The notes: a model not told the origin generated them from the letters alone. 54,349 bases of DNA, filler included, from Basidioascus undulatus (GCA_000826855.1; 3 parts of 3 records of this genome joined end to end with filler, not necessarily neighbours in it), one strand, 5' to 3'; shown: positions 43,101-54,349, counted from the whole stretch's first letter. Numbers and translations are program-made.

Positions 43101-44916
43101 TGGTTCGTATAACTTAAAAAAATAAATACAGATACCTCAATTTTTGCCTTCATCACTTCACCTCTCCGCCAAAGTGCATCTCAGCCACCCAACTTCAAGA
43201 AGGACGCCTACCATCTTGCGGACGAGCCTATACGAGCATACAGAACCCAAAGTCCACCTTTGTTTACCCTATGCATTGATAATGGGCCCATAGAGCCGCA
43301 TCATTAACAGATCAGTGGAGGAAAAGGCGGCAAGACGCCCCGGTCGAGGCCTGGACGCAAAACATGCAAGCCAGACGTAAGTGCCGATGTTCGACCCCCA
43401 TACTTCCTGGAAAGCGACTGGAGGTTTTAAATGTTTGGTGGATTGTGAAAACGCGCGGGACGAGGCTTGGGTCCAGCGGAGTAGAGTCCATGGGCGACAG
43501 TCAAGGAACCGGGACTTTGTGAACGGTCCACGGTCGACTTCCCGACTCCAGTTAGTTCTCGGTCAAATACAATGCGGTGAGATCGGCGCATTAGACTCAT
43601 ACTTGGGAGCGAAATCGTCAGGAGACACTTTACACGGCCTGGCGTATCATGTTGATAGCCAGCAAGCAATGGTCGGAGACGGTTGGCCACTCAGGCTGGC
43701 GCATTGGGTGTCTTGACTCTTGGGTGACGCCAGGTTCTGACGGGCTCATCGCGTTCTGTTCGTGCATGAAGCGCGCGGAGGTGAAAAACGCTAAGAAGGA
43801 GTGGACTGAGCGCTTTGCCGTGATATTGGTGGCAATCTTACATAGGGGAGTGTTGCGAGGACGAGGACTTTCCGCCTCCGCAGGGTTTTATAGAATCGCC
43901 TCGGATGTCTTCACCCCCGTTAGAGCCCAAACCCGGAGAGAAGAAAGTAAGAATACGGAAGAAGGATGTCCTGTCGGTTAAATGGGCAGTACCGAGCACC
44001 ACAGTCCTGGGCAGTCGAGACGAGGCGGACGCGTTTCACACTGAGTTTTTTTGCGACCTTGCCTACCTGATCGTGGGCCGGGGACGCCGAGAGTAACGGT
44101 AAGGTTGATGTTTTGGAAACGCAGCTGAGCTGAGCCGGGCTCTACCTAGGCGGGTTTTCTAGATTATAATGATTGCTTAAAGAGAAGGGAGACAAAGCGA
44201 GAATGACTGACTGGTCAGTCCGCTGCGTCGAGTTGCGTCTGCGCAGCGAGCAGAGCACAGGCACAGCCGGCCGCTAATGCCCAAAATGGCCCTCATTCCC
44301 ATCTTTTCCTTGCACATATTTCCGCAATTTTCGTTCATTTCCCACCCTTTCAGTCAATGTTGCGCACATGGCTTTCCGCCCGTGACGCAACGGGCCGACT
44401 GCGCGGCCCCTCGTTTGGTCTTCTCTTTGTCCAGACTCGGCACCTGCCAACCCCCGTTCCTTTCTTGCCGTTGTCTCTGTCCCCTCCCTTCTTCGTTTCT
44501 TCCATCATCGTCAACACCAATATCACCGACTTCAACATCTCTCTGGACTTGTACATCGCGACCCCCGCCGCCCCCCACACGATAGACGCGCGACCGAGTT
44601 GGTTCAATTGCGGACGCGTTATTTCTCCGACTGCGTCCTGCCCCTGTCTGCACCGCCACGGTGCTCGACACGTCCAGAGCTGGCTCTCGACGATTTCTGC
44701 ATTTGGACTTTCATCAGCCCATCAACATCCACCGACGCCGAGACTGTACGCCCATCACGATCCTCATGCCTCTCCCATTCGAGCAGCCTGACGCCCTCTC
44801 CTCTGCAGCCGCACCCTCGACACCCTCCCCCCTTCCGCTTCAGCAACCCCTGCCCCCTCTCTCCTCTCTCTCTCTCTCTCATCTGATACCGCTCCCCCGC
44901 GCTCGTTTGGTGCACG

Positions 44917-47900
44917 ATGGGCATATCATGGTCCGATATCAAGAAGATGGGCGAGGATGCCCTCAACGTGCGTCGCCGTCCTTGCACGCGCTACCCACCC
45001 CGGTCCCTGTTCCTGGCGCTAGCGGCCACGCAGGCCAACTGACTCCCGGCCCTTCCTGCCTTCTTCGCTTCCCTCTCTTCCTCGCACACAGAAATACAAC
45101 GTCAGTAAAGTGGCCGACGCGCGATCAGTATGGCTCCAGGTCGCGGCCATGTCCGCCGTGTCGGTGCGTCCGGTTTCCCTGCTCGAGAAGGTGGAGCGGG
45201 GCAGGGTACTCATGAATGCGCGGGGAATGAGCGCAGCTGGCGACTATCATCGTGTTCTCCATCCTCCGGCCGCGCAACAAGGTCGTCTACGCGCCCAAGA
45301 TCAAGCAGCGCGTCAAAGGCGCAGAGGACATCCAGCCACTCGACGACGGCATCTTCTCCTGGGTCAAGCCCCTCTTCCAGTACAAGGAGAAGGATTTGGT
45401 GCCCAAGATCGGTGGGTGCCCCTTCCCTCCTCCCTCTCCTCTTTCGCCCTCCCCTTCCCTCCCCCCTCTTCCCCGTCCCGCAGAGGCCCGAATAGAAGAA
45501 GGAGACTGATGAGGAAGGGGTTGGGGACAGGCCTCGACGCGGTGACCTACCTCCGCTTCCTGCGCATGCTGCGCAACGGCTTTGCGCTCACGGTCATCCT
45601 CACCTGCGGCATCCTCCTTCCCGTCAACTACGTCTACAACAACAAGCACGTCGACGGCCATGACAAGTCGTGGCTCACCGCGACGACGATGCAGAACGTC
45701 TACGACAGGAAGTGGCTCTGGCCCCACGTGGCTGTGAGCTACTGCATCAGTGCGTGCGACGCTTTTGGCGCGGACGGATTGAACGCGGCGTAGGGAGTGG
45801 GGGCTGATGATGCGCGGTGTGTCGCACGCGACAGACATGATCTTCATGGTCCTCATCTGGTTCAACTACCGGGCCGTACGTGCTCCCCTCCCCCTCCCTC
45901 TTCCGCTTCCGCCCCACACATCTCACCCTCCCCCGCACTCACAGATGGTCCGCCTCCGCTGGGACTGGTTCCGTTCCGAGGAGTACCAATCCTCTCTCTA
46001 TGCTCGCACGCTCATGGTCTGTCTCCCCCTCCCCCCCAAAATCCTCTCCCCCTTCCCCTACTCACCCTCCTCCGACAGATCACCTCCGTCCCCCGCAAAC
46101 TAATGTCCGACTCAGGGCTCCTCTCAATACTCAAGCCCGACCCCGAATCCAAGCAAAAGTTCGCGATCCCGTACGACCTGACCTCGGCGCACATCGGCCG
46201 GCGTGTGGGGCACCTGCCCTTGCTGGTGGAGAAGCACAACGACGCGGTGCGCCGGCTCGAGCAGGTGCTGGTTAGCTATTTCAAGAAGGGGACGCTGGAG
46301 GGGCGGAAGAGGCCGACGAAGACCGTGGGTGGGTTTCTGGGCATGGGAGGGGAGAAGGTGGATGCTATCAAGTATTACTCGTGAGTGCTGGGTCCCGTTT
46401 CTTTTTTCGGCTGCGGGAACGGACTGATCGGTTTATGGTGGTGGGGGCAGCGAGAAGATCCGCCGCTTCGAGTCAGAGATCGAAGCGTGGCGGGCCGAGA
46501 TCGACTCGAAGAAGCCGGAAAAGTACGGCTTTGCGACCCTCGCCGCCGTGCCGTTCGCGCACGTCGTTGCGAGCAAGCTAGAGAGCAAGCACCCGAGAGG
46601 AACGACCATCACGCTGGCGCCGAATCCGAAGGATCTGATCTTCGAGGTGCGTGTTTGTTTCCTCCCTTCCGTCCCACCTCCCTGCCTCCCTTTCTCCTTC
46701 CCACCCTCTTTGCGCCTTCCTCCCTCTTTTCCCTTCCTCCCTCTTTCCCTTTCTCCCTCCCTTCCTCCATCGCTCGCTCCCTCGTTCTCTTGCTTTCCTG
46801 GTGTTTGAGTGGTACTTGGTCGATGGGCCGGTGGGCGGCCGGTGGGCTGACGAAGATGAGGGGGGAATAAAGAACTTGCATGACACCCCCTCGGCCGCGC
46901 AGAAGGCGACGGGGTGGGCGCTCCTCGCTGCTGTTTGCGTGCGTGGTCGTTGTCTTTTCTCGTGCTTGATGGTGCAGGCTAACCTGGGCTGAGGTGATAC
47001 GCGGCGGAGCAGTTCCTGAACACGATCCCGCTCCTGGTCATCTCCTTCCTTGCCAACCTCTCCTATGCGACGGCATACTCGACCTCGCTGGAGAACTGGC
47101 AGGATTCCTCGCCGTGGTCGTTCTCCGCCGTGGCCGGTGCGTCTGCGCGTCCTTCCGTTTCTCCTTCGTCCTTCTATTCCCTTCCCCTTCTTTTCGGCCT
47201 TCCCTCCTCCTTCCCTTTCACCATTTCCTTCCCTCTACTCGTACCTCAGAAGCGACTCACAAATGGAACGGACATGTTAGGTATTCTCCCCCCCGTCGTC
47301 GCCGCCCTCTTTGGCTGGCTCCTCCCGCACATCATGCGCAGGCTGTCGCAGTACCAGGGCGCCGTAACGCAGTCGCGCCTCGACCGCGCCGTCGTCGCCC
47401 GCTTCTTTGCGTTCCTCATCATCTCCCAGCTCTTCATCTTCACCCTTCTCGGAACGGTATTCAGTGCGTCCCTTCCCCCTCCCCTCCCCTCCCCCTCATT
47501 CTTTCCCTGAGCGTGTGGGGATGTGCGGCGATCAGACTTGGTTTCCGACGTTGTGCGGATGTACAGCGGCAAGGCGGAGGGCTTCCAGGGCGTTTGGGAC
47601 GCCGTGGAGAGTGAGTTGGTTTTGGGTCACGACACGAGGGCAAGGGCCAGGCTGAGCCGATTGGGACGGACAGAAATCGCCATCAAGATCAGGGACGCGT
47701 ACGTCTCGCAGGGGTCCTACTGGCTCAAGTGGTTCCCGATGGTGTGTTCCGTCGCCCTCTCTCGGTCTCCCGCTCTCCAGATGGGCTGATACTCGCGTGC
47801 GAACAGCGCGGCTTCCTCGCGTTCTTTGACCTCGCGCAACTGCTTAACCTGTTCATTGTTTGGATCAAGACTCAGTGCGTGTTTCTTCAGTATGGAGTGG

Positions 47901-49759
47901 AGACGCGAGCAGCGCTTATGCGAGCTTGGTCTCGCTCGCTCGTAGCCTGTTCGGTCGGACCCCGCGGGATATCAAGGAGTGGACGTACCCGCCTGACTTC
48001 GAGTATGGTCAGTTGATCTTTGCGCTTCCTTTTCTCTGGCGGTGCAGAAGTCCTGACCAACTGGAGCTGGGCGTCAACAGCTATCTACTATTCGAACATG
48101 CTCTTCAGTACGTATACCGGCGGTTCTCCTGCAACAGTTCCACCTTCTGACTGATCTGTGCGTGCCTTTCAGCTGCCACCGTCGGCCTCGTCTACGCGCC
48201 CATCGCTCCGCTCGTCTCCGCCGCCGCCCTCGCCGTATTCGCGATCTTCGGGTGCGTCTGCCCACCTTCCCGAATCATCGACCGTCGTTGGGAACGTTGC
48301 TGACGCTGATGGACGACGATGATGCAGTGTCGTCTACAAGTATCAGCTCATGTTCGTCTTCGTGACGCAGGTCGAGTCGGGCGGTCGCGTGTGGAACATG
48401 GTGCGCTCGCTTCATGCCGGAAGAGCGTGTGCGCGGAGATGCTGATATACCGTAAACAGATCGTCAACCGCCTGCTGTTCTCGCTCATTGCGATGCAGGC
48501 CATCATGATCCTTTGTACGTTTTGACCGCAGTTTACGGGGACAGTTCGTAACGAAAGCTGATGCCGTGGGATCGTTCAGCCATGGGCCTCGCTTCGGGCT
48601 GGTACTACGCGATTGCGGCCATCCCGCCGATTTTGTGAGTCTTATTGTGCGCCGTTCGAAGACAGCGGCTTATGCAGCGCCGGCACTGTCGCAGTGTCGT
48701 CCTCATCTTCAAACTGGTCCTCACGCGCAAGTTCGACAAGGTCTTCCGCTACTACCTTCCCACCGAGGAGGAGATGGCCGGCAGCAAGATCCACAGCGAG
48801 AAGAGCGACGTCAAGCGGAACCGCCTCGAGAAGCGCTTCGGCCACCCGGCGCTGCACGCTGAGCTGGTGAGTCGAGATTGGTCGATTGTGGCTTTGATGG
48901 CATGGCTGCTGACGTTCGCGAGGGGCATTGCAGTTCTCGATCCAGATCCACCAGAAGGACGAACACCTCCTCGCCCAGGTCTTGCCCGGTCGCGCGCATA
49001 GGCACAGCGTCGGCGGCAAGGAGGACATCCACATGGGTGGTCTCAAGGTGCATGGTCTCCCAATATCCTGACATTGAAGGAGGTGCTGAGTATGTTCGCT
49101 GTCTGCAGTTCGAGGCGGTCACAGAGCAGGAGCTCGAGGAGGCGCAGGTTGAGCGCGACCGGGGCGAGCAGGATTGGGACGCACGTTCGCTCGCCTCGAC
49201 GACGCTCGAGGGTCTCGACCGGGGCGCGACGCCCGCGCCGTCCATCTCGGGCATGCTCAAGCAGCAGTACCTCGCGCACGGCCCGGGCTACGCGCCAGCG
49301 CCGATGGCCAGCCGGGAGGACATCGAGCTCTCGAGCATGGACTCGTACAGCTCCGCGGCGGACCGCCCGCTCGTCGCCAACGCTGCCGCGCCGTCCGGCT
49401 TCGGCGCGCAACGCCCGCCGTTCGCGCGCAACTACACGTCCGCAAGCGACCTCGAGATCGAGCCCCTCACGGCCGGCGGGCGGACATCCCCGCCCGAGCA
49501 GCCGTACGACGCGCCCCCTCCTGGCCGGTTCACCCCGTCCGAGGGCCGCGGGAGCCCCGCGCCCGCGTACTCGAGCCCCCCGCAACGGTACGGAGCTATG
49601 AGCCCCGAGCAGCGCTTCGGCACCCCGCCCTTGAGGTACGGCTCCACGAGCCCCGAGCAGCAGTGGAACACCGCGCATGGGCGCGCGCCGAGCTACACCT
49701 CTCAACCCCAGCGGGGTTACACCCCGCCCGATGGCACACGGAGGGGCGACGGGTGGTAG
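44917..49759 (+). CDS. CSC1/OSCA/TMEM63 (Phm7/Rsn1, DUF221) osmosensitive Ca2+-permeable channel
   Basis: FSILRPRNKVVYAPK, IG|LDAVTYLRFLRM, YARTLM, KVDAIKYY, YGFAT, LAPNPKDLI, FAFLIISQLFIF, GFLAFFDLAQL, VYKYQLMFVFVTQVESGGRVW; Pro-rich tail ending at 49759. Confidence 0.93.
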
Positions 49760-50622
49760 TTGATTGCGCCTTTACTGTCTCACCCTCGCTTCCCCCTCGC
49801 CTTTTTCTTTGTCTGTCTCTTGTGCTCGGGACGCAACGCAGGTCGTCTGCCTGCCGCTTATCTATATGGGTTCGTTCGCATCGCACATTTGTTTCTCTCT
49901 CCTTTGATTTCAGGGACACTTCGTCATAGAGTCGCCCTTTCTTGCCATCGTCACCTGTCGTTGTTTTTTCGTCTTTGTCATCTGCTCGCACGCCCTTCAC
50001 CGCACATACTGCACACACATTCGCTTGTAGCATCCCGTTGCCATCATACAAAACACGTCTGACGTTACGGATAGAGCTTCGTTGCATTTGCCTGCGGTGC
50101 TTGGTCGCATCGTGTGTCCCGCCTGGTTTGACAAGGATGCGTTTTGTCAGTCGCCATACGCCCTAAGAAAATCTAAGCGTCCCTCCTGCTCATACTTCAA
50201 CGCTGGCAGCGACCGCCCGCTAAACGATGCGTGCAATGGAGGTATCAGATACCACGCTGCAGAAGGCGCCCGAGCACAGAAGAGCCATTGCTTCCCATAC
50301 AGCGTCAGGACAGGTTACAACCTAAATAATGAGGCACGACAGTTCCTCGCCCTGTTGAATGCCCTTCCTCCGGAAACCTTGAATTTGATAAACACGAGAT
50401 CCTATCCCTGTGTGGAATACTCGGAAACATGCACTAAGCGGCGACCCACCGTCGAGGCTTTCTGACGGACGTTCCCCTCCATCAAGGACAGGACCCAACG
50501 CAAACCATAATACAAGCCGGCATTTACAATGCCTTTCAATCTCGGAGACTCCTACAAAACAGAAAGGAATTATTCAGAAATTGTCCACGTGAAGTTAAAC
50601 AAAATTTTATTTTAGAGACCCA

Positions 50623-50694
50623 GCAGCAGTAACTTAGTGGTAGAGTGTCAGATTGCAAATCTGGAAGTCCCCGGTTCGATCCCGGGCTGCTGCT
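50623..50694 (+). tRNA. tRNA-Cys (GCA), intronless
   Basis: Cloverleaf: GCAGCAG/CTGCTGC acceptor stem, ACTT/GAGT D stem, TCAGA-TTGCAAA-TCTGG anticodon arm, CCCGG-TTCGATC-CCGGG T arm, U73 discriminator, T-run terminator. Confidence 0.95.
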
Positions 50695-51187
50695 TTTTGG
50701 CCTTCCGTTTCCCCACAACAAGACGCTACAGTTCATCTCCATCCTTGTTTGCACTCGCAACCCCCCCCTTTGTTTCCCCTCTAAATACACTTTTCTAAGT
50801 TCATGCGACTCCCATGTACTGGGACACTCGACCAGCTTAGCTTGACACGAACGCCCGTGTCGGCGGTGCACCCCATCACTGAACTCGTCCGGTCGGAAGC
50901 ATACATGCAAAATACGTCATGTCTTGCGGGTTCGAAGGCGGTTCTAGATTGTAATGGTTTTTAATCTGGCCATGTTGCTGACCAGGGTAACCTGGACCAA
51001 GGTGTCGACCGTCTCTGATCAGAGCGCGGCGGCGTTCGCATAGGTTGGCTACGCCCAGGTTCCGACCGCCTTGATTCGCAGCTGTGTTGCCTCCTGCATA
51101 TTATTCTTCTCCATGCTTTCTTCCTATGACTCTCGTCACGTACTGTATGTCCAAGTGCCTCCTGAACCTTCTCTGAAGCCAGTTTTG

Positions 51188-51529
51188 GACTGCACAGTCG
51201 TCGTCATCTTACCGTAGCACTGCGTTCGTCAGCTTAATGTCGCCGTGGAGGACGCTGTTGGCATGGAGGTGGCAGAGAGCGTCTAGGATCATGACTGCCC
51301 ACAGGTGAGGCTTGCCATTCCCTGCCTCCAGAACTTCCCAGGGAGTGTACCTGTACCTCCTCATCCTACAGCCTCCCTTGACGCGCCCCACCACCTCGAC
51401 GATGTGCGGGTGGGGAGGTAGGGAAGCTAGGAACTTGAACTCCCTCGATGCGTACAGCGCTTTCTTGTCCACGTACTCCTCCTGGAAGTCCAGCCTAGCC
51501 ACTATACCCAGCAGCTCAAGTATACGCAT
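51188..51529 (-). pseudogene. Minimal intronless protein kinase, interrupted after the catalytic loop
   Basis: MRILELLG..YVDKK..REFKFL..HPHIVEV..ALCHLHANSVLHGDIKLTNAVLR* then DDDDCAV in frame; no DFG or C-lobe. Confidence 0.8.
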
Positions 51530-51571
51530 AGTACGGGCAAAACTGGAGTTGACGGCGTCACACCAAACGTG

Positions 51572-53524
51572 ATGGATAGGTTTGAATACTCGAAGGGCGG
51601 CCGGTGGCTCTACACTGACGCAGAAGCGTACCTCTGGCACGGCGGGTGCTATGTGAGACTCGTCTACAGGCCGGGAACCCTGGCCGCCGATATCCTCGCC
51701 TTCAGAAAGGACCTTCCTGAGTACGGCCGCAGCCTCCTGATAGACGGGGACGATGTCACGCACATAGACCATGAGGAACTGCGGGAGCCCGACGAGCCGG
51801 AGGATGACAGCGAGGACGTGTCTGAGGAGATGTCCAGGCTTCCAGTCGTCAAGGCTGACGAGAAGGTCCACTACCTCAAGCACTGCATGTACAGGAGCGA
51901 GATACAGAACTTGCTCAAGGTCAGAGGGGGCCCGTCTGTGATAGAGCTACTGGGGCGTACGGAGGACATGAGGCTTGTGTTCCCCAGGTATACGACCGAC
52001 CTTTTCGAGTATGTGGTGAGACACAGGGGTACGGACTTCAGGCAGCACGCAACGTGGCTGCTGCAGATAATCTCGGGTCTCAAGTGGCTCCACTCGCACG
52101 GGGTGGTCCACAGGGACCTCGTGCTCAGGAACATAATGTACTCGGAGCCCGTGGTGATAGCCGACCTCGAGTCCAAGCACACCTCGCTTGACTGCAGACC
52201 GCCCGAAGTCTCGGCGGACGCCGGGTTCAGCCCGGCTAGCGATGTGTACGCACTAGGTTTCTGTGTATGGCAGATGGAGAAGCGCAACTACCCGAGGCCA
52301 TTTGCACCGGTGGAATTGGAGGGTCCGCTTGCAGAGATCTTCCACGCCTGCAGACGAGAAAGACCCGAGGACAGGCCGACCCTCGAGGAGCTCACCCTCA
52401 CCCTTGAGTCACTAAGCGACCCGCAGGTGCGGCGCCCCTCATCTGCAGCGCGCATGTCAGAGGCACCCAGCCCTGGGTCAGGGCCCGCTACAATGACGGA
52501 GAGCCTCAGTGAGTTCATACGTACGAAGGGGGCGTGTATGCGTCAGGAGGAACTGGCCCTCGCGGTCCTCAACGAGGCGGAGGGGAGGAAGGTTTCCCTG
52601 GACCCCGACCGGATACTCGTTCACTACGAGCCCTCCTGCACCGCAGACTTCAGGGTGACGAGGCTGGAGCTCAAGGATACAAGCGAAGCAGACACCGACT
52701 TCGCCAAGGTCCTCCGCGCGCTGTACGGGATCGTGAAGGATTACGAAGGGGAGCCGTACTGTAACTACCAGCTCTGCGTGCACAGCCTCTGTTTTGAGAG
52801 CCACACCCTCGACGAGTGGCGGACTCAGCTCCCCCAGTTCATAGGCGAGGGCATAGACTACAAGGTTTACAAGACACGCGAGGGGATAGCAGTGAAGGTG
52901 GCGAAGGAGCGGTGGGTGGTTGCGATAGCAGTCAGGGAAGGCCTCACCATCAAGCAACTCTCTCGGGTTCCCCACATAGTAAGGATGTACGAATTCCATG
53001 TAGTTGACGACAGAATCAAGGGCTTGCTACTGCAGTACTACCCCAACGGGACGCTGGAGGACCACCCCCGGATGCATGAGTGCGTCGATCGCTGGGTGTT
53101 GCAACTGGCCATGGCGATCGAGGGCATGCACGCCCTCGGTATAGCGCACGGTGACCTCCGCCCTGACAACATTATGGTCGACGAAGACATGGACGCTGTG
53201 GTGTGCGACTTCAGTGCAGCGGGGGTGGGGAACGAGTGCAGAGGGCACCCGCGGTGGTCGATGCACGAGACCAGAGAAGATGACGCCATCATCCGCACCG
53301 AGCACGACGTTTACTCCTACGGCCTGCTAGTCCTCTATCTCACCTCCGGTAGCAAGCCCTACCCCGACATAGACAGCGACGATGAGGAGGCTCTGGTCAG
53401 AGCCACGAAGGTGCCCCCCGGGTTCGACACCTCGTCAAAGTATGGATGGCTCATAAACGAGTGCCTCGGCCTCCGGTTCCCTGGGGTGGCAAAGATCAGG
53501 GAGACCGTGGAGAAGCCGGAGTAG
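51572..53524 (+). CDS. Intronless tandem (two-domain) protein kinase
   Basis: 650-codon ORF. Kinase 1: HYLK, SEIQNL, VHRDLVLRN, IADLE, PPE, SDVYALG. Kinase 2: IGEG, IAVK, VRE, AHGDLRPDN, CDFS, HDVYSYG. Confidence 0.92.
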   Translation: MDRFEYSKGGRWLYTDAEAYLWHGGCYVRLVYRPGTLAADILAFRKDLPEYGRSLLIDGDDVTHIDHEELREPDEPEDDSEDVSEEMSRLPVVKADEKVHYLKHCMYRSEIQNLLKVRGGPSVIELLGRTEDMRLVFPRYTTDLFEYVVRHRGTDFRQHATWLLQIISGLKWLHSHGVVHRDLVLRNIMYSEPVVIADLESKHTSLDCRPPEVSADAGFSPASDVYALGFCVWQMEKRNYPRPFAPVELEGPLAEIFHACRRERPEDRPTLEELTLTLESLSDPQVRRPSSAARMSEAPSPGSGPATMTESLSEFIRTKGACMRQEELALAVLNEAEGRKVSLDPDRILVHYEPSCTADFRVTRLELKDTSEADTDFAKVLRALYGIVKDYEGEPYCNYQLCVHSLCFESHTLDEWRTQLPQFIGEGIDYKVYKTREGIAVKVAKERWVVAIAVREGLTIKQLSRVPHIVRMYEFHVVDDRIKGLLLQYYPNGTLEDHPRMHECVDRWVLQLAMAIEGMHALGIAHGDLRPDNIMVDEDMDAVVCDFSAAGVGNECRGHPRWSMHETREDDAIIRTEHDVYSYGLLVLYLTSGSKPYPDIDSDDEEALVRATKVPPGFDTSSKYGWLINECLGLRFPGVAKIRETVEKPE

Positions 53525-53634
53525 ACCGGCGAGGTTTCGAAAACAACACCGGCTGTGTCCCTGGACTCATGATCACCTACCGCGCCTGCGGACCCACAAC
53601 CAGGGTTGCGTCGACACCTCCACCGTCATTCGCT

Positions 53635-54289
53635 ATGCCCACCATCCCCCCTTGCGGAGAGGAGGCCCCAGATGTTGTGAGACAGCTGTCCTTCGGCATC
53701 ACCGAGTTCGTGGGTGAACCCTTCGTCGAAGCCGAGGCGTGCTACGTCTCGCGGGTCAAGTACAAAGGGAAGGACGCTGTCGTAAAGGTTCAGATAGGGC
53801 CCCCGAATCAACAGGAGATAGATATCATGAGGGGCCTGAGGGACGTCATTCCCGTTCCCGAGGTTTACGACTACGGCGCCCACGGAGTCTGGGCGTATAT
53901 TGTGACAGAGTTCATGAGGGACTCCGTGACCTCGAGGACTACGAGGGGTTCATGTCGCCGGAGCTGTGTCGGGACAAAGGTGCATCCGGGAGGTAAGGGC
54001 CCACAGGACGGAGCCACCTCCCCTGCTCGTGAAGGACTCGTACTTTGAGGCGTGCTGCGGCGAGGGGTACCGGTATACCGACATCAACGACTTCATGACC
54101 AAGCGCCTGGAGGGGAGCGGAGTGGAGGTGTCGGGGCTCCAGGAGGTGCCCTTGGTCCTCTCCCACTGCGACCTGCTGCCTAGGAACGTCCTCGTGTCCA
54201 ACGACGGATCTAGGGTGGCAGCCATAATAGACTGGGAGTCCGCGAGCTACATGCCGGAGTTCTACAAGTACTTCAACAGCATCACTTGA
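53635..54289 (+). pseudogene. APH/choline-kinase-like phosphotransferase, two frameshifts
   Basis: AVVK..QEIDIM..IPVPEVYDY..YIVTEFM; shifts near 53931 and 53977; LSHCDLLPRNVLV..AAIIDWESASYMP (Brenner motif and DWE). Confidence 0.85.
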
Positions 54290-54300
54290 GCGGTATGGAA

Positions 54301-54349
54301 GGCGAGATGGCCGAGCGGTCTAAGGCGCCAGACTAAGGATCTGGTCCGA
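54301..54349 (+). tRNA. tRNA-Leu (AAG), 5' portion, cut by end of sequence
   Basis: GGCGAGA TG GCC GAGCGGTCTAA GGC G CCAGA CT-AAG-GA TCTGG TCCGA: Leu-type D loop, perfect anticodon stem and start of the long variable arm. Confidence 0.9.

Follow-up and report, generated by a model that had tools for sequence, protein, structure and literature searches.

A compact, intron-free block of kinase-fold genes between two tRNA genes in Basidioascus undulatus: one intact tandem kinase and two relics

We analysed a stretch of DNA of 54,349 nucleotides (nt) from Basidioascus undulatus (GCA_000826855.1), hereafter the window, in which three parts of three records of this genome, not necessarily neighbours in it, are joined end to end with filler; all positions are counted from its first letter. 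Near the end of the window, about 3.1 kb of intron-free kinase-fold coding sequence (51188-54289) lies between a tRNA-Cys gene and the beginning of a second tRNA gene, which we read by eye as tRNA-Leu. A first-pass annotation, made from the sequence alone, had described this block as a foreign, virus-like island of four kinase-fold domains. Four kinase-fold pieces are present, but only two of them are full domains, both within one gene, and the other two pieces are broken: the block comprises one intact tandem kinase and two relics. Its tiny spacers, put earlier at 42 bp and about 110 bp, were found as described, with a 42-nt gap between the divergent ATGs at 51529 and 51572 and a gap of 110 nt from 53524 to 53635. 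The same holds for its placement about 500 bp from the one tRNA gene and 11 bp from the other: the distance from tRNA-Cys to the kinase block is 513 nt, and tRNA-Leu starts 11 nt past the TGA (54287-54289) that ends the last gene, which is APH-like. The features are as follows.

50622-50695, plus strand: tRNA-Cys, anticodon GCA (ARAGORN; Rfam RF00005, 67.2 bits)
50696-51208, no strand: non-coding, single-copy spacer (depth 52.4 in run X1, 17.3 in run X2)
51209-51571 (coding 51212-51571), minus strand: truncated kinase fragment, 120 codons plus stop (hhalign, tblastn)
51572-53524, plus strand: intact tandem-kinase open reading frame (ORF), 650 amino acids (aa) (Pfam Pkinase, E 3.6e-35, two stretches)
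51572-52480, plus strand: the window's member of a kinase family of about 330 aa (P0006-P0040), within the tandem-kinase ORF (alignment A1, tree)
53635-54289, plus strand: broken APH/choline-kinase-like phosphotransferase gene (Pfam, three-frame reading)
54301-54349, plus strand: 5' two-thirds of a tRNA, cut by the window end (Rfam RF00005, model positions 1-48 of 71)

Contigs of three sequencing runs were compared with the window. X1 and X2 are DNA runs from different studies, 11 years apart, and contain 0.99 and 0.89 of the sampled words. X3, taken from the sample that also gave the likely source run, is labelled 'DNA?' and behaves as cDNA, with 12 GT..AG joints in one contig.

The tandem kinase and its broken neighbours

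The longest stop-free frame in the window (697 codons; the runner-up has 416) holds the 650-aa ORF, which needs no introns. It matched the Pfam families Pkinase (PF00069, 122.1 bits against a cut-off of 31.7) and PK_Tyr_Ser-Thr (PF07714, 99.9 bits against 23.1), each in two stretches; the FunK1 profile (Pkinase_fungal, PF17667) was absent among the eight Pfam families matching the ORF at E <= 0.1. Domain 1 (aa 1-290) carries K103, E110, HRD 180-182 and N187, all invariant or nearly so in A1, an alignment of 14 sequences, followed by DLE 198-200 and PPE 210-212. DLE replaces DFG here, as in most family members, and there is no GxGxxG loop. Domain 1 is followed by a Pro/Ser-rich linker and an unassigned stretch that reaches about aa 420. 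Domain 2 (aa 424-640) contains GEGIDYKV, AVKVAK, HGD 526-528, N533 and DFS 546-548; its Lys and Glu were assigned by eye, and DFS and GEGIDYKV stand in place of the canonical DFG and glycine-rich loop expected at these points. Both domains retain Asp and Asn in the catalytic loop as well as the Asp that binds metal, and the two halves of the ORF are only about 30% identical over 91 residues. We predict that the 650-aa protein would be an active cytosolic Ser/Thr-type signalling kinase.

An AlphaFold2 model of aa 1-303, which covers domain 1 only, showed a bilobal kinase fold (predicted local distance difference test, pLDDT, 86.0; predicted template modelling score, pTM, 0.76). A Foldseek comparison of this model with the PDB returned the kinase domains of MerTK, BTK, FGFR2 and KSR1 at the top (E about 1e-11 to 1e-10), so that its closest folds are kinase domains of the tyrosine kinase (TK) and tyrosine kinase-like (TKL) type; PDB sequence searches returned generic kinases only. 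The model folds the conserved N-terminal stretch of the family into strands of the N-lobe. Family members stop at about 52440-52510, where the ORF continues through the Pro/Ser-rich linker, with in-frame ATGs at positions 52454 and 52493, so that the tandem kinase may have arisen by read-through fusion of two formerly separate, closely spaced genes.

The minus-strand fragment runs from the beta3-Lys region to an HGDIKLTN catalytic loop and then reaches a stop, without the start of the N-lobe and without a C-lobe; it amounts to about one third of a kinase domain. Its Pfam Pkinase score of 21.4 bits lies under the cut-off of 31.7. Alignment to A1 by hhalign gave a probability of 96.4%, with residues 36-117 falling on family positions K103-N187, and tblastn with 150 query proteins produced 117 match rows in the bin of the fragment (best E 8e-9). 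Downstream of it (50700-51211) nothing kinase-like was found in any of three frames or by tblastn; likewise, the three minus-strand frames of the spacer at 50696-51208 gave no kinase-like reading, and tblastn with the 150 kinase proteins was empty there. We considered a downstream exon, since GTAAG stands at the stop of the fragment, and rejected it because no frame of 50700-51211 is kinase-like. The fragment is probably a pseudogene. The minus-strand ORF extends a further 312 nt, to 51883. There it runs opposite the strand that codes for the well-conserved N-terminus of the 650-aa ORF, and we therefore regard the extension as a probable chance reading frame in GC-rich coding sequence.

The last gene has a catalytic loop, HCDLLPRN, and a metal-binding motif, IIDWE, in common with the APH/choline-kinase phosphotransferases (PF01636, PF01633), and a stop follows soon after IIDWE. 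Its APH match (35.6 bits; cut-off 23.2) and its Choline_kinase match (27.6 bits) are confined to 53966-54289, and the APH match spans only profile positions 165-201 of 239. The APH score above the cut-off is that of this C-terminal piece, in a gene whose full-length frame is interrupted; the N-terminal piece matched no Pfam family. The frame changes between about 53917 and about 53990, so that the N-terminal and catalytic parts lie in different frames, and a protein-like stretch is found in the third frame between them. The gene differs from the APH family in this broken frame, in its missing C-terminal part and in the lack of a close relative among our matches. An intron behind the frame change was considered and rejected. 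The sole cDNA-like contig across it (X3, 53858-54191) is colinear with the DNA, with no gaps and no other letters, and the frame change is therefore not spliced out in that contig; by eye, no GT..AG pair of host-like size would restore the frame. This gene, too, is probably a pseudogene.

Relatives of the kinases

To place domain 1, we compared it with protein, viral and metagenomic collections. In an exhaustive phmmer search, 37 representatives reached E <= 1e-30, and 355 reached E <= 1e-10. The best matches are proteins of about 300-350 aa with 35-44% identity over nearly the full length of domain 1, and two of the top matches (P0004 and P0005; 779 and 677 aa) are tandem repeats of a domain 1-type kinase. 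The sequences in A1 are 33-41% identical to the window and share 24 invariant columns, including W22, L37, P49 and G59. Domain 1 carries the N-terminal stretch of the family (W22, PGTLA, DLPxYG, G59) and an acidic insert before the kinase core. Within the family of about 330 aa, members P0006-P0022 have DLE for DFG, no glycine-rich loop and an acidic insert of the form EPEDDSEDxS. We found no name for this family in the literature, in searches that were not aimed at it; domain 1 belongs to a distinct fungal kinase family that apparently has no name.

The Atlas clusters closest to family member P0007 and to the C-terminal half of the ORF are kinases of about 330-440 aa, and their commonest phyla, according to automatic cluster labels, are Basidiomycota or Ascomycota; Nucleocytoviricota kinase clusters appear among the Atlas neighbours only at ranks 18-30. 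One relative, P0029, has a Pkinase_fungal N-terminus. These labels suggest that the relatives are fungal.

Viral and metagenomic searches returned kinases of another kind. The 58 loci found in IMG/VR are generic kinases that match in the catalytic core only, mostly at 22-42% identity (with one short outlier of 54% over 28 residues), and no IMG/VR match starts before query residue 77, that is, none reaches into the first 76, family-specific residues. A metagenome scan with a five-sequence family alignment behaved alike: the best 80 of 248 loci are all generic kinases with 21-49% identity in the core only. Exact-word scans, which are weak tests, found no viral relatives of domain 2 or of the APH-like piece. 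In an unrooted FastTree tree of 80 rows, with Shimodaira-Hasegawa (SH)-like support values and no bootstrap, the smallest supported set containing domain 1 consists of 31 family rows plus domain 1 (SH-like 96), and all 39 IMG/VR rows and 8 generic rows fall outside it. The viral origin offered by the first-pass annotation is disfavoured by this placement inside a non-viral family clade, by the Basidiomycota and Ascomycota labels of the Atlas neighbours and by the generic character of the IMG/VR kinases.

A word-indexed homologue search gave three weak generic matches for the 650-aa ORF, none for its N-terminal 135 residues and no longer protein for the C-terminal APH-like piece; this search needs shared 5-mers, and its blanks mean little. 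A PDB sequence search with the APH-like piece returned nothing significant. Pairwise identity among the kinase-fold pieces that we compared is at most 30%. Some distant matches of domain 2 (P0019, P0028 and P0041) are very long proteins with 5-15 kinase-domain stretches in a row.

Copy number, transcription and composition

The tRNA-Cys gene is followed directly by a TTTTT run (50696-50700) and is multi-copy, with a contig depth summed over its bin of 260 against about 50 in its flanks (X1). The stretch beside it (50761-51491) is single-copy as judged from contigs. The partial tRNA at the window end scored 20.9 bits with Rfam, under the gathering score of 29 (E 0.83); read by eye, it is a type II tRNA-Leu(AAG) with the anticodon loop CTAAGGA. 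This gene is also multi-copy (depth 634 against about 50 in X1). DNA contigs stop within it at 54328, where several different upstream flanks converge, and the window ends there because short-read contigs break at the repeat. Both flanking tRNAs appear to be ordinary multi-copy RNA polymerase III (Pol III) genes, and their neighbourhood to the block seems incidental. The flanks of other tRNA-Cys and tRNA-Leu copies, as seen in contigs, are unlike the block, which speaks against the earlier suggestion of a cassette array accumulating at Pol III genes.

Read depth, a comparison that had been proposed earlier, put the block at the single-copy depth of the host in both DNA runs: contigs unique to the block have a depth of 52-61 against 49.8 for the host in X1, and of 17-21 against 16.6 in X2. 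Neither a contaminant nor a multi-copy episome would be expected to show such equality. The X2 pieces listed are identical to the window and are therefore silent on presence or absence of the block in other lineages.

Parts of the block have paralogues elsewhere. An extra contig over 51245-51491 with 21 differences was found in both runs, another over 51583-51714 with 8 differences was found in X1, and depth is about twofold over 51900-52389 in X1. Loose contig ends lie at 51245, 51572 and 53584, near the ends of coding sequences; separate paralogues, one or more for each gene, therefore lie elsewhere in the genome, and the block as a whole is not repeated. Of the 19 differences listed for a 393-nt paralogous contig on the minus-strand fragment, 13 are at the third position of a codon in the frame of the fragment (binomial p 0.0019), and the changed codons comprise 11 synonymous and 6 others. 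This bias indicates that the copies diverged under purifying selection and that the family has long been in the genome.

X3 covers 53191-53398, 53416-53566 and 53858-54191 at a depth of about 5, against 85 for the neighbour gene, and the 650-aa ORF is weakly expressed and unspliced in this single cDNA-like sample. X3 cover is nil over 50185-52144 and X2 depth is low over 51900-52144; we draw nothing from either.

A neighbouring gene served as a reference for gene structure and codon usage.

44207-49959, plus strand: RSN1/PHM7 (CSC1-like) membrane protein gene (family match; X3 contig over 47013-49959)

In its last 3 kb, the X3 contig reveals 12 introns of 59-144 nt, separating internal exons of 28-331 nt, one of them just 28 nt long. 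The description of the block as intron-free within an intron-rich genome is thus borne out, with 12 GT..AG joints in the neighbour and none needed in the uninterrupted 650-aa ORF.

Codon usage in the block is deviant, as had also been noted. Of the 44 Ile codons of the block, 23 are ATA, whereas the spliced neighbour gene uses ATA for none of its 24 (Fisher p 2.7e-6) and 15 other long ORFs of the window use it for 14 of 133; the corresponding fractions in block and neighbour are 42/72 and 4/34 for AGR among Arg codons, and 26/61 and 6/41 for GGG among Gly codons. All five coding pieces of the block show this habit. Only 12% of third positions are A, with a GC content at third positions (GC3) of about 0.76-0.78, and the codon habit is therefore not a neutral pattern. 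Loss of CpG by methylation was considered, since observed/expected CpG is 0.85 in the block against 1.22 in the coding sequence of the neighbour, and was rejected as the source of the habit because C-to-T decay would yield ATT, not ATA. A preference for ATA, AGG/AGA, GGG, AGC, AAG and GAG at high GC3 recalls some GC-rich hyperthermophilic archaea; we take this to be a coincidence of purine-rich third positions, because the proteins are plainly eukaryotic. The k-mer comparison suggested earlier went both ways. Dinucleotide composition deviates as the codons do (distance 0.149 for the block; host mean 0.052, maximum 0.098; 0 of 95 host windows reach 0.149), but by 4-mers the block is no outlier, with 9 of 95 host windows equally far or further, and its GC content of about 0.60 is similar to that of the host.

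Origin of the block

The explanation that we favour, with some reserve, is that the block is a local cluster of soluble fungal-type kinase genes from expanded, fast-evolving families, with one intact member and two relics. It would be chromosomal single-copy DNA of the organism; its intact member would be the 650-aa tandem kinase, expressed at a low level, and its relics a kinase fragment ending after the catalytic loop and a frame-shifted, 3'-truncated APH-like gene. Duplication within the genome would be the simplest source. The paralogues found elsewhere for three parts of the block, one of them diverged mainly at synonymous sites, indicate that the kinase families are resident in the genome and run counter to a recent foreign insertion. 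That the block is intron-free and tightly spaced, with a codon habit common to its genes, nevertheless implies a history separate from that of the adjoining housekeeping genes. The claim of foreignness thus survived in part: composition and structure are unlike those of the housekeeping neighbours, but origin from a virus, by recent insertion or as a tRNA-linked system was not supported.

Such a cluster has a parallel in mushroom-forming fungi. In Agaricomycetes, TKL and FunK1 kinases are described as having undergone strong expansion, the TKL genes concerned having neither extracellular domains nor secretion signals (bioRxiv 10.1101/349894). The TKL and 'Other' kinases, including FunK1, are portrayed in that source as lineage-specific, multi-copy, fast-evolving and soluble, much as here; the ORF in the block resembles the TKL set in matching PK_Tyr_Ser-Thr as well as Pkinase, in its TK/TKL folds and in its genomic paralogues. 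It differs from FunK1 in having no PF17667 match and in that domain 1 belongs to the family of about 330 aa, with its DLE, acidic insert and N-terminal stretch. Two kinase domains per soluble protein are likewise described for the plant tandem kinase proteins (WTK1/Yr15, Lr9 and WTK4, among others), and P0004 and P0005 are tandem too; the plant proteins are presented as cereal immune receptors, and the comparison with the 650-aa ORF would be one of architecture, not of common descent. As read here, the block would be one more case of the known expansion and turnover of soluble kinases in fungi, adding one tandem-kinase member and two relics, and by itself it would carry little weight. Should the codon habit prove, across the genome, to be a mark of intronless, packed genes as a class, a way of gaining genes not recognised so far in this fungus would be indicated, by retroposition or an unknown element.

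Several observations weigh against a cluster of local origin. A single codon habit runs through all five pieces and is found in none of the other long ORFs of the window; because the pieces share this habit despite identities of at most 30%, a common source outside the genome fits at least as well as local duplication. Independent host genes would not usually have a 1.95-kb exon or spacers as short as 42 and 110 nt, given the short internal exons of the neighbour. The homology searches and tree, which had been suggested earlier, set domain 1 apart from viral kinases but left domain 2 as a long, unplaced branch, and neither domain 2 nor the APH-like gene had a close relative in any search. The taxon labels of the relatives rest solely on the automatic cluster summaries of the Atlas. 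X2 is not an independent evolutionary sample, host gene and block are linked across the 74-nt tRNA-Cys repeat with no short contig spanning it, and the sequence past tRNA-Leu lies outside our view. A local cluster leaves unexplained why the block has this codon habit, no introns and such tight packing, and these features keep a mobile element or transfer between fungi among the explanations to be considered.

We therefore weighed other origins against the cluster. The strongest competitor, possible though clearly less probable, is that the block was cargo of a mobile element not yet characterised, or is what remains of one, or else is a segment from another fungus; several unrelated kinase-fold genes would have arrived together, intronless, tightly packed and with the codons of the donor. 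One deviant habit in all five pieces and missing from 15 other long ORFs, a dinucleotide distance beyond the host maximum, and the absence of introns with tiny spacers would all follow; the decay of its genes is of a kind often met in old insertions, and the block lies at a contig end beside repeats, where the rest of an element would be out of sight. The visible part nonetheless holds no recombinase, transposase, reverse transcriptase, helicase, terminal repeats or target duplication, its paralogues break at different points instead of recurring as a unit, their mostly synonymous differences mean long residence in the genome, and the 4-mer distance is ordinary. Some known elements invite comparison. 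Foreign DNA is reported to gather at Pol III genes in the case of yeast Ty1/Ty3 and of Dictyostelium TRE5-A and DGLT-A (PMC5006619, PMC5911963), and Starships are described as elements of Pezizomycotina that carry blocks of accessory genes (PMC9156397, PMC11162782). Unlike the tRNA-targeting retrotransposons, the block has no reverse transcriptase, integrase, long terminal repeat or poly(A) tail, and the spacer beside tRNA-Cys is single-copy; unlike a Starship, it shows neither a captain gene nor element ends within the window, although one side of any element would lie past the window end. No Starship is known from Basidiomycota. A more specific version is improbable, although not fanciful: unrelated kinase-fold genes would have come as an intronless cassette on an undescribed cargo-bearing or DNA-virus-like element of basidiomycete-type fungi, landing beside Pol III genes. 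If so, the rest of the element would lie beyond tRNA-Leu, and the tandem kinase would be a conflict or sensor protein, not a housekeeping signalling enzyme.

The remaining origins are each very unlikely. Fusion of a contaminant to a host contig at the tRNA-Cys repeat, or an assembly chimera there, could be read from the short contigs of both DNA runs, which end in tRNA-Cys (50650 and 50660) where other flanks join, and from the change of composition between its two sides; yet the block has the single-copy depth of the host in two runs of different origin, paralogues of its genes occur in the same runs at host-like depth, and a 74-nt repeat should be shorter than ordinary reads. We give slightly less credence still to descent of the block from a large DNA virus (Nucleocytoviricota or similar) with several kinases, of which a fragment became endogenous. 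Compact, intronless genes would suit such a source, and giant viruses encode many Ser/Thr kinases, though Nucleocytoviricota clusters come late among the Atlas neighbours; IMG/VR holds no family member and matches the core only, domain 1 stands apart from all 39 viral rows of the tree, the exact-word scans, weak as they are, were empty, the scanned ORFs include no capsid, polymerase or packaging gene, and GC content is like that of the host. Equally hard to credit is a tRNA-associated kinase defence or conflict system acting on or with the flanking Pol III genes, an idea raised in the first-pass annotation, with the position of the block in its favour. The PADLOC kinase models mad6, MkoA and PD-T4-6 do match the 650-aa ORF (mad6 with E 3.8e-44 on residues 431-616), but in the common kinase core only; the APH-like pieces gave no PADLOC match, and no partner genes of those bacterial systems are present. 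Moreover, only one of the three genes is unbroken, other copies of tRNA-Cys and tRNA-Leu have flanks that, as far as visible, do not resemble the block, the paralogue signal of the APH-like gene stops short of tRNA-Leu, and the association concerns a single locus picked after the fact.

The search for mobility and virus genes behind these judgements covered 68 of 88 long ORFs of the window together with the ORFs of the block, and left out 16 ORFs outside it. In agreement with the earlier annotation, which saw no integrase, transposase, reverse transcriptase or capsid gene, no family of these kinds and no helicase was found among the scanned ORFs, nor was any viral hallmark (capsid, polymerase or packaging genes) up to 54349. 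The window contains no tyrosine-recombinase captain, transposase or element ends, and it stops 60 nt after the last gene; it also has no terminal repeats, the longest direct repeat being 22 nt at 77% identity, and no second copy of the block. Elsewhere it is eukaryotic in character, with housekeeping genes appearing as many short ORF pieces; the families found are NOG1, RIO1, Rer1, ATG16, ATP-synt_C, Nas2, Pyr_redox_2 and RSN1/PHM7. The RSN1/PHM7 neighbour has a long C-terminal tail rich in Pro, Ser and Gly.

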